NCBI GenBank assembly: GCA_964385615.1
Contig: CAYLPP010000003.1
Span: 139,288-203,287, forward strand
Reading direction: 5' to 3'
From: an uncultured bacterium
GTDB lineage: Bacteria; Omnitrophota; Omnitrophia; Omnitrophales; Aquincolibacteriaceae
Length of the DNA stretch: 64,000 bases
The position numbers and the translations under genes were made by a program. Shown piece after piece: positions 23,505-26,500 of the stretch. How positions within the stretch are numbered: the stretch's first letter is position 1; the number at the start of each line of letters is the position of its first letter. Below the pieces are notes generated by a model, which did no database searches, was not told the DNA's origin, and saw nothing but the letters and a program-made list of their open reading frames with translations.

Positions 23505-26500
23505 TTAAAACCGGGTGGAGTTACGTTTTAAAAATTTCAAAAAAGGATTATCACTTTGATCTACCGTCAAAAACGCTGGGCTTTCCTGAAATTTCCCAGC
23601 ATCATAGTTATTATCCCAAGAATGATACGTAAGTACTTTAGGGGAATAAATCAAACCAGATGCGATTCTAAATGGGTTCAGCGTGGAAGAAAGATTCGGA
23701 ACCGCATCTCTATAGTCAATTTTATAGCTAACGGATCCTACACCAGCTAAATTGGCACTTAAAGTCCCCCGAATTTTTGACACAGTCGTAGCATCATATT
23801 CCACGCCTGAAATATTTGTAAGCATCTGCCCTCTTTTAGCCACTTCAAGTAAAGCATTACTTAAAATAACCGTTCCCTGGCTATGAGCATCAACAGCTAT
23901 GCGATTTCCATATTTATTCAAAAAAACCAAATCGTCCGCCACTTGTCTTGAAACCGCACTAGGAATAATCGGTCCCAAAAACTTATCCAAAGCAAATTCG
24001 GTTAAATCTGCCAATATTCCCGAACTAGGATTGTATCTCACCGCAACCCCCGTACTTGCCCGGCGAATTGCATCATTCCGAGAGGTGCTAACTCCATTAA
24101 CTTTATAGAATTGAATATTAGCAAGTATTGCACGTAATTGATTAGGATCTTTTATTTGAGATTGCAGATCCTGCAAGCTCTTAAAATGGCGCCCATCCGG
24201 GAGATAAATCTCCGATCCTTGCTTAAAAAGAAACTCCTGAATCCCTAAAATAGGGAAAAGAGCGACCTGCCCTATCTTTTGCAATAGACTAGCTTGACCA
24301 TTTGGGCCTGAAGCTGTCGGATTAAAATTTCCAATTGTTTCAATAACAGATCCGACTTTATTCGCCGCGATTTTAAGAATATTAAAATTCCCACCGTCCA
24401 AATCAACAATTTTGAATAAACTATTTGCCGTATTGGAAATCTGGTAAGCAATTTTAACGCCTCCCGCTACTACTGTCTCAAAAAAAGCAGCGGTACCGGA
24501 AGTGTTGAAGTTAATTTTTTCAACAACCGCAGTAATTGGATTATTAACTAATATGGATTTAATGGCTCCGCCGGCGTCTTTCAGGAACTTTGTAACGCCA
24601 TTCTTTAAATCGTCAAAGAAGCCGAAATTTGCCTGCTGGCCGGTGGGCGGACCGTTATTGCCGGAAGCTCCAATTCCCAGGGCATTATTGATATTTTTTG
24701 CAGCATATGAAGCAACCTGGCTTCCAACCGCTTCTATGCCGACATTGGCGACTGTGCTTAAAACGCTTTTCCAGAATTCGCTCATTTTGCTTTTCTGAAT
24801 CTGCTGATCCACTTTCTGTTCAACAAGATTCAATGCGAATTTCTTCAGCGTATTAGCCACCAGCTGTGTAAACCCGCCAACCGAACTTAACCCCTTAGTC
24901 GCTCCGCTAATTAAATTTTTATAGCCAACAAGAGGATTAATCTGTTCCTTCAAGCCGTTAATAAAAGCCTGCTGAAGGTTTTGAGGTTTAAACGCCTGGA
25001 ATATTTTCTGAAGACTGCTTCCAAGATTACTTAAAGCGCTGGATATATTGTTGACCGCGCTTTGAAGAAGATTGCTTCCAAAAGTAGCCACGCTTTGCCC
25101 AAATGAGGAAATCGCCCCGCCCAAGCCGGAAGATAACCCGCCTATCACATTGCCGATCCCAGAAATGACTGTCCCGACGACCTGTATGATAGCGCCAATC
25201 ACGGCTTGAATCGCGCTGAAGACGACCTGAAGGATGGCGTTAAGAATCGCCCCGATAATTTGGCCGATCACCGGGATAAATATCAGAACAACCTGAATTA
25301 CAACCTGAAGTGCCGTCATCGCCCAGTATTTAAACAAGCCCTTAAAATCACCGCGCTCCGCGTAGTGATAAGAATTGATAATAAAGTTAAAAGGCTGATT
25401 CAAAATTCCGGAAATGAAATTCCCAACGGTTTTACCGAAGATAGCGACTGCCACTTTATTAATGGTCGCCACGATCTTTTCGATCAGCTTAATTACCGGC
25501 CTGAGAACTTCGACAAAGAAATGAACGATTTTCTTGAATAGCTTGCTGAACCAGCCGGCCCCCTTAACCTTTAAAAGGTCTGACGAAGCCAGATCGTTTT
25601 CAGGATTAAATCGGAATACCTGGGTGCCGAAACGGTAAAACCGCATCGCGTCAGAATCGTCTAAAATCGGAAGATTCAAGGCCTGCAACTGCGCCGCCGT
25701 CAAAAACACAAACCCGGTAAACAACGCGCCGAATTCCGTTTCTGAAAGCTGTTGATCAACACCGTTTTCGCGGAAAGAAACCGTTCCCCCGCTGATCTGC
25801 ACCAGTTCGACAAAACGAGTTGCCGTATCGTTTGGATCGGCAGCGTTTTCCTTAATTAAAACGGTAATCGGTTCATTGAGAGACGCAAGCGTATCGGAAA
25901 GTTCCGTGTAACTCTGCGAAACTTTATGAAGACGCGTTCCAGTTTGAACAAGCGCGAAACCAAACCATTTGGCTCGGAATTCCGCGATTGACTTAGTGGT
26001 GGTGTGACCATTCTCAAGGAAGGTCACGGTCGTATCCGTGATCGCGGTTACGACAACGTAATGGCGCTCTTCAATATTTACGATCACCGGCAGACCACTG
26101 ACAGTCACGAGACGAACCAGGTCTTCCCAGCTTAACTTAAAGCCCTGAATTCCCGCGTTATTCACCGCAGCCACGGTTTTCAAGTTATAGGCTGAAAACT
26201 GGAGGTTTCCGGTAAATTCGGGAGAAATGACCCCCGTAAGAATATCGACGAAGAGCGCTTCGGTCGTCAATTCGGGGAGGCTGGGAGCAGTTCCAAAAAT
26301 ACTTAGAATCATTTCCTGCACGGAGTGCATGGCCGACTGACCAAAATGAATATCTTCATCAATCAAGTCCATAAGTCTGGACTTAATCTTATCTAGATCG
26401 GCTGAGGTCAACTCCGCCATACTGAAAGCGGTATCCGCTTTGAGAAGTTTTAAAAGGTTCTCGAATTGCGGATTCAACGTTCCATTCGCGAATCCGAAAA

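Follow-up and report, generated by a model that had tools for sequence, protein, structure and literature searches.

Giant proteins of the Omnitrophota, some of them longer than 85,000 amino acids (aa), raise the question of whether they are single chains or are cut into pieces. This question is addressed here on 64,000 nucleotides (nt) of DNA from an uncultured bacterium of this phylum (GenBank assembly GCA_964385615.1, contig CAYLPP010000003.1, positions 139,288 to 203,287 of the forward strand), a stretch that is called the window below, always at its full length. An open reading frame (ORF) on its minus strand encodes a protein of 8,175 aa. Toward its C-terminal end, this protein carries a C39-like domain with Ser at the position of the catalytic Cys, followed in the same chain by a motif of the double-glycine type. 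Domain and motif form a cassette that gives explicit, testable cut sites, the one in the window being the bond between A7492 and G7493.

West-Roberts et al. (bioRxiv 10.1101/2023.11.21.568195) describe "Dockerin-type" giants of the Omnitrophota with discoidin, ILEI, dockerin and DUF1080 domains, and with C39-like domains and transmembrane (TM) segments at the C-terminus. They already propose that the C39-like domains cut the giants into pieces and state that the cleavage points were unknown, which blocked further analysis. These are the same proteins, with the same Pfam match, as those considered here; no mention of a Ser replacement or of a downstream motif was found in the passages searched. 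A cluster with a PF03412 architecture also appears among the long Omnitrophota proteins of a 2026 preprint. A limited literature search turned up neither a Ser-type C39 family nor the downstream motif. C39 domains in Omnitrophota giants were known before; the Ser switch appears to be new, and the conserved downstream motif is new here. The window protein has the architecture of a Dockerin-type giant, with a Pfam scan detecting RHS repeats, six LamG_3 domains, seven F5/8 type C (discoidin) domains, dockerin and ILEI. This body comes first and the C-terminal processing cassette follows. The named relatives of the protein come from metagenome-assembled genomes of Candidatus Omnitrophota.

A serine-type C39 domain

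The features of the domain are as follows.

23505..48032, minus strand: giant ORF of 8,175 aa, from ORF calling and a Pfam domain scan
25941..26435, minus strand: C39-like papain-fold domain of the Ser type, aa 7200-7364, from Pfam, profile, AlphaFold2 (AF2) and Foldseek comparisons
26346..26348, minus strand: His7229, first residue of HFGxSA, kept in 114 of 116 Ser-type copies and absent from Cys-type copies
26334..26336, minus strand: Ser7233 (codon TCG), at the position of ComA Cys17, from hhalign and family alignments
26244..26246, minus strand: Asp7263 (in DILTG), a family-specific invariant within a 10-residue insertion
26061..26063, minus strand: His7324, equivalent to the catalytic His96 of ComA, conserved in 162 of 164 copies
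26013..26015, minus strand: Glu7340, equivalent to ComA Asp112 (His +16), with Asp or Glu in 153 of 160 copies

Residues 7200-7364 are a C39 domain with the papain-like alpha+beta fold. Pfam Peptidase_C39 (PF03412) matches with 28.4 bits (cutoff 22, E 1.6e-6), over profile positions 45-128 only, that is, over the half carrying His and Asp. A family profile searched against the PDB retrieves PCAT1, LahT150 and ComA, with a best E of 3.6e-10 for PCAT1. Likewise, hhalign comparison of a 74-sequence family alignment with 12 canonical C39 domains (Streptococcus pneumoniae ComA, S. mutans ComA and those of ten plasmid peptidase-containing ABC (ATP-binding cassette) transporters, PCATs) gives a probability of 98.75% and an E of 1.4e-16 over aa 7230-7371; the S. 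pneumoniae ComA sequence used is 100% identical to PDB 8hf7. An AF2 model of the domain, built with a 38-sequence alignment, has a predicted local distance difference test (pLDDT) of 93.2 and a predicted template modelling score (pTM) of 0.86. With this model, Foldseek ranks PCAT1, ComA, the C39-like domain (CLD) of HlyB and LahT150 at the top, with a probability of 1.0. The C39 toxins of PDB 9l5u and 8ssm are also among the structure and profile matches. An NCBIfam scan gave nothing beyond the Pfam result.

The family was recovered by one search only, an exhaustive HMMER search that yielded 221 cluster representatives, mostly proteins of 2,000-7,000 aa. Word-indexed protein searches returned one match with the domain, one with the family profile and none with the C-terminal tip of the protein. 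Compared with canonical C39 domains, hhalign places a 10-residue insertion, FVDILTGVIS, between the first two helices; Asp7263, Gly7267 and Ser7280 are invariants specific to the family.

The fold had been anticipated by an earlier reading of the DNA letters, the original prediction, which placed a C39-like papain fold at positions 26000-26360 and around residues 7150-7400. The residue estimate was right, and the peptide quoted, HFGQSAMHSV...ERHYVVV, is indeed encoded on the minus strand within the giant ORF: HFGQSAMHSV begins at aa 7229 (window 26346-26348), ERHYVVV holds His7324, and FGFALV ends at aa 7362 (window 25947). The nucleotide range overlaps the domain but clips its first helix and its last ~20 residues. 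Two further proposals, that Ser sits where the catalytic Cys should be and that the downstream His of HYVVV is conserved, agree with the alignments. In contrast, the "QxxxDCG box" invoked to place the Ser has no literal counterpart, the local motif being HFGQSA without Gln at -6 or -7.

The pairing of Ser7233 with ComA Cys17 falls at the N-terminal edge of the hhalign alignment, where confidence is low. The same column nevertheless holds Cys in 41 family copies, in both MAFFT and hidden Markov model alignments, and this settles the position of the Ser despite the weak alignment edge. The census covers 179 domain copies in 151 proteins. Ser is found in 116 of the 179 copies, including the window domain, which lacks the catalytic Cys of C39 peptidases, and Cys is found in 41. 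By triad, 106 copies are Ser-His-Asp/Glu, 36 are Cys-His-Asp/Glu and five have Cys, His and another third residue; one has Thr, two are degenerate and the remainder are truncated. The His-to-acid spacing of +16 is the same in the window domain as in ComA, with Glu standing for Asp.

The two main classes have different signatures. Ser-type copies read H-F-G-x-S-A, with His at -4, Phe at -3 and Gly at -2 in 114 of 116 copies, and within this HFGxSA class the Ser is ~99% conserved. Cys-type copies read [VI]-[IV]-N-C-A, with Asn at -1 in 39 of 41 copies. Transitional sequences also occur, namely SIINSA (nearly identical to a SVINCA sibling), TFGRCA and HFGSTA. All three triad positions are at least 95% conserved, and the degenerate active site of the HlyB CLD type is not found here. 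The 106 Ser-His-Asp/Glu copies and their HFG signature point to purifying selection on a site that looks catalytic. From these alignments, the Ser is a conserved state and not the product of decay, and the invariant HFG signature looks like a re-tuned active site. Chance resemblance, a frameshift or a sequencing artefact were considered as explanations for the Ser and rejected: two substitutions separate TCG from a Cys codon, and the Ser is kept family-wide.

A double-glycine-type motif downstream of the domain

Two further features lie between the C39 domain and the predicted cut.

25608..25937, minus strand: degenerate duplicate of the C39 C-terminal lobe, aa 7366-7475, from BLASTP and AF2
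25557..25592, minus strand: leader-like motif L7481-A-S-S-D7485-L7486-L-K-V7489-K-G7491-A7492 (P12 to P1), from a regular expression and MAFFT

In double-glycine leaders of class II bacteriocins and competence peptides, the consensus is L at -12, E at -8, I at -4, G at -2 and G, A or S at -1. After the domain, family members carry the recurring consensus L-[STN]-x2-[EQ]-x3-[IV]-[RK]-G-[AS], directly followed by hydrophobic sequence. This is the classical double-glycine leader consensus, the type of leader taken as substrate by C39 peptidases, and here it lies in the same chain as the domain. The window copy is LASSDLLKVKGA, followed by GWF. The G-G/A/S cleavage rule for C39 has been described (bioRxiv 10.64898/2026.05.07.723447).

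The motif is nearly universal among Ser-type copies. With [LIVMT]xG[GAS] as the sole anchor, it was found in 104 of 105. The positions left free by this anchor are constrained too: over the 104 copies, P12 is L, I, V or M in 101, P11 is S, T or N in 82, P8 is E, Q or D in 82 and P3 is R or K in 92. P2 is G in all 104, P1 is A in 64, S in 37 and G in 3, P1' is F, G or C, and P2' is W, F or L. A strict regular expression finds the motif in 97 of 134 copies, against 0.07 expected per search window, at a median distance of 25 aa from the domain end. Most Cys-type copies are followed by the motif as well; these copies lie nearer the N-terminus, and hydrophilic sequence comes after their motif. In multi-copy proteins there is one motif per domain copy. 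Downstream of two copies that have lost the nucleophile as well as the His, the sequence has K-G-T where the others have G-[AS].

MAFFT aligns the window motif with those of relatives, and G7491 is invariant in alignment A2. The first match of the regular expression in the window protein was another one, TRFVELVQISGG followed by T (aa 7405-7416, window 25785-25820, minus strand). It was rejected as a cut site and put down to chance: it falls within a predicted beta-strand of a duplicated half-domain, and the homologue P0002 does not have it.

This half-domain, at aa 7366-7475, occurs only in the window protein and in two relatives (P0002 and P0007). It is considered a degenerate copy of the C39 C-terminal lobe because it matches that lobe by BLASTP (E 5e-5), repeats its order of secondary structures and has Arg in place of the His; the nucleophile helix is missing. 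An AF2 model of aa 7200-7515 with 38 homologues (pLDDT 88.9, pTM 0.81) shows the half-domain at pLDDT 92-96. In the same model, leader-like residues 7480-7489 have a pLDDT of ~90 with a helix at 7483-7488, which suggests that this helix packs on the folded part.

Proposed self-processing and its rivals

We consider it fairly probable, from the conservation described above, that the domain is an active C39-type autoprotease with a Ser-His-Glu triad that cuts its own chain after G7491-A7492. The presence of one motif of a canonical substrate type per domain copy is hard to explain otherwise. The domain would be a built-in processing protease, probably single-turnover, with Ser7233, His7324 and Glu7340 as its putative triad and His7229 of HFGxSA as a co-evolved residue. 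The substrate would be the leader-like segment lying ~130 residues downstream in the same chain (only ~25 in most relatives). This segment may bind the C39 groove as a short helix, with the chain then cut after G-A. Such a cut would part an extracellular lectin/RHS/dockerin body of ~7,490 residues from a C-terminal fragment of 683 residues, predicted to consist of an amphipathic or hydrophobic membrane module and a variable tip. Once freed, the fragment might deliver the tip by inserting into the membrane of a prey. Alternatively, it might anchor the protein in a membrane, with the cut then shedding the body.

A broader proposal, on which we are evenly balanced, extends this to the whole family. 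HFGxSA domains would be genuine serine proteases on a C39 fold, with a family-wide Cys-to-Ser switch and a co-evolved His, cutting the Omnitrophota giants in cis after L-x3-E-x3-I-[RK]-G-[AS]. Each gene would then encode a polyprotein that frees, outside the cell and independently of redox state, a membrane-active C-terminal fragment with a variable tip.

Several points weigh against these readings. Serine tends to be a weak nucleophile in the active site of a papain fold; a single-turnover cis reaction would tolerate one. The HlyB CLD shows that C39 relatives without a nucleophile can be pure binding modules. The canonical oxyanion Gln is not aligned: the hhalign alignment begins at -3, the invariant His7229 stands at -4, and the -7 position is Glu7226 in the window protein and mostly Gln (51) or Arg (42) in the family. 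In the AF2 model, residues 7492-7494 (P1-P2') have a pLDDT below 50, and in the window protein an extra 110-residue half-domain lies between enzyme and motif. Finally, the data do not discriminate whether an oxidising compartment is the cause of the Ser.

This last point calls for some comment. The giant protein has only three Cys among its 8175 residues (aa 7, 5416 and 5421; 0.037%), compared with 0.88% in 16 other ORFs of the window, a 24-fold depletion. Giants of the same family are all Cys-poor, with medians of 0.18-0.28%. Such a depletion would fit an extracytoplasmic protein for which a thiol nucleophile is a liability. This rationale for the Ser is offered as a hypothesis, since Cys-type copies appear to share the extracytoplasmic location. 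Indeed, a division into extracytoplasmic Ser-type and cytoplasmic Cys-type proteins was considered and found unsupported, both kinds lying behind N-terminal signal or anchor segments, and no significant difference in Cys content was found between Ser-type and Cys-type proteins (p = 0.14).

An alternative that we hold to be rather unlikely is that the Ser-type domain is a non-catalytic latch that binds the leader-like helix without cutting, like the HlyB CLD, and holds the membrane module to the body or chaperones export. CLDs (HlyB, PDB 3zua; Vibrio, PDB 3b79) have a degenerate active site and bind RTX (repeats-in-toxin) substrates without a GG motif, and the HlyB CLD has Tyr at the Cys position. 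The window family differs from them by its conserved triad positions and by its GG-type motif. A pure binder needs neither the Ser, His7324 nor the acid at His +16, all of which are conserved here. Nor does it need the small residues at P2 and P1, yet G at P2 and A, S or G at P1 are found in 104 of 104 copies. Furthermore, the Cys-type siblings that share the motif resemble normal, active members of C39. The original prediction had left the choice between a recognition domain and an unusual Ser-His enzyme; the conservation of the triad, of HFGxSA and of G-[AS] at P2-P1, each at least 95%, favours the enzyme.

Could the domain instead act in trans, either as an effector on Gly-Gly sites of prey or partner proteins, as Tox-PL-C39, Cpe1 and the C-terminal domain of StbD (StbD-CT) do, or on other copies and other giants? 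C39 domains are toxins in polymorphic systems (PMC3482391; bioRxiv 10.64898/2026.05.07.723447), Tox-PL-C39 with a C-H-D triad being listed as a toxin domain (Zhang et al., 2012, PMC3482391). The toxins of PDB 9l5u and 8ssm are among the matches, and some Cys-type second copies lack a downstream motif. StbD-CT and Cpe1 (PDB 8ssm, 8ssk, 9l5u) resemble the window case as C39 domains within large secreted polymorphic proteins, and cis, redox-gated self-cleavage after Gly-Gly has been demonstrated for StbD-CT (Nhan et al., 2026, bioRxiv 10.64898/2026.05.07.723447). However, they are redox-gated Cys enzymes with the GG ~25 residues upstream of the Cys, whereas the window domain has Ser and a motif downstream. 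In addition, their domain is the terminal toxin, which cleaves GyrB/ParE. The domain of the window protein sits inside the chain and is kept in close relatives; what varies is the extreme C-terminus. Nearly all Ser-type copies have their own motif at a fixed short distance, as a cis reaction predicts and as an effector does not need. An action in trans therefore appears improbable.

A PCAT encoded elsewhere in the genome might also cut the motif as a genuine double-glycine leader, with the embedded Ser domain left as a relic. The motif does fit the established substrate consensus of PCATs and of AMS (ABC transporter maturation and secretion) proteins. Yet no PCAT is encoded within the 64 kb of the window, the motif lies ~7,490 residues from the N-terminus of a protein with a Sec signal, it pairs one-to-one with the embedded domain, and this domain is strongly constrained; we regard this explanation as very improbable. 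The C39 domains of AMS/PCAT exporters (ComA, LahT150, PCAT1; PF03412, MEROPS C39) themselves differ from the window domain in several ways. They carry Q-x5-DCG where the window domain has Ser in HFGxSA. The window domain has the 10-residue DILTG insertion and no ABC fusion: the Pfam scan found no ABC transporter domains in the giant ORF, and the fusion of C39, transmembrane and nucleotide-binding domains typical of PCATs is not present. It also lies inside a Sec-exported giant, upstream of a substrate motif in the same chain, and is probably extracytoplasmic, whereas AMS/PCAT C39 domains are cytosolic.

Serine on a papain fold has precedents. Plasmodium SERA5 (PDB 3ch3), menin, DUF2272, DUF2145, DUF3750 and PF09641 likewise show a natural Cys-to-Ser change with His and a third residue kept. 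Their activity is debated. They come from papain-like families other than C39, and no cis substrate is known for any of them. A 2023 survey (PMC10318531) notes residual activity in papain-fold enzymes with Ser in place of Cys and lists several papain-like families in which Ser is conserved, without C39 among them. The cassette described here offers a natural system for the thiol-to-hydroxyl re-tuning of a papain-fold active site, since Cys-type, Ser-type and transitional members stand side by side in one family and each comes joined to its presumed substrate. If the Ser-type autoprotease is active, it would also be a redox-insensitive self-cleaving tag recognising a 12-residue motif and could become a tool.

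The C-terminal fragment, related cassettes and gene setting

Beyond the predicted cut, the following features were delineated.

24453..25556, minus strand: amphipathic/hydrophobic Gly-rich module, aa 7493-7860, conserved among close relatives
25179-25301, minus strand: predicted TM hairpin, aa 7578-7618, from TM prediction
23508..24335, minus strand: orphan C-terminal tip, aa 7900-8175, matching no family member
23874-23888, minus strand: AHSQG motif in the tip, aa 8049-8053, resembling a nucleophile elbow
22956..23501, minus strand: 181-aa ORF with a clear signal peptide, starting 4 nt after the stop codon of the giant gene

The original prediction was that of a peptidase releasing a toxin. 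The releasing role gains strong support from the conserved double-glycine-type motif downstream, but the cut is predicted 683 residues ahead of the C-terminus, so that a module and a tip would be released together. A tip is indeed present, and it is variable and orphan: the last ~270-275 residues of the protein gave no match in family members, in Pfam, in the PDB or in a search of 5.8 billion sequences. Each close relative has a tail of its own, none of them like the window tip. An HESVH motif is present in the tail of P0004. The P0005 tail contains HTHP and weakly matches DUF4329 (E 2.7e-4, below cutoff), and that of P0014 matches Abhydrolase_8 barely above the curated cutoff (21.8 bits vs. 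20.5, E 1.6e-4).

From its variability among close relatives, its AHSQG motif and the small secreted ORF next to it, the tip is a putative toxin; the AHSQG motif hints at an alpha/beta-hydrolase. The 181-aa ORF, which gave no significant family match, may encode a partner of the tip or its immunity protein. This layout of tip and small ORF resembles that of a polymorphic toxin (sensu Zhang et al., 2012). These searches identified no toxin or immunity family for the tip or the 181-aa ORF.

Some relatives carry more than one domain. Eight of them (P0008, P0011, P0013, P0015, P0016, P0018, P0027 and P0034) have two or three C39-like copies each, mostly of the Cys type and located 150-800 and 1,500-1,900 aa from the N-terminus. 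The first copy is in most cases followed by a G-[AS] motif of its own and then by hydrophilic sequence, which suggests a polyprotein-like processing at several sites. Several second copies are instead followed by a Pro-rich ERAPP stretch, without the motif.

The cassette is also found as a stand-alone gene of 392 aa, P0001 (L001 1950-3128, JGI metagenome 3300076124), made up of a helical lead-in, an HFGQSA domain, the motif LTSLEAQSIKGS and a TM segment. This gene adjoins a phage-integrase fragment, which suggests that the cassette can exist or move alone.

Two segments complete the description of the giant protein.

aa 19-37, minus strand: N-terminal signal/anchor segment, from signal and TM prediction
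26436..27185, minus strand: helical pre-domain, aa 6950-7199, shared by the closest relatives, P0002-P0007 (E 1e-17 to 1e-45)

The genes around the giant ORF are housekeeping genes (fumarase, heme synthesis, MreB/PBP2/RodA, MurA and a P-type ATPase). Toward the N-terminus of the giant protein, the segment SHTHPNEHSAQGPSGLD (aa 182-198, window ~47439-47489, minus strand) resembles a JAB/MPN metalloprotease motif (HxH...SxxD), in a region where Pfam yields a weak DUF6145 match (E 0.0097). Finally, two LamG modules at aa 4825-5024 (window 32961-33560, minus strand) and aa 5208-5407 (window 31812-32411, minus strand) share 94% identity at the protein level and 86% at the DNA level, which points to a recent internal duplication in the giant gene.

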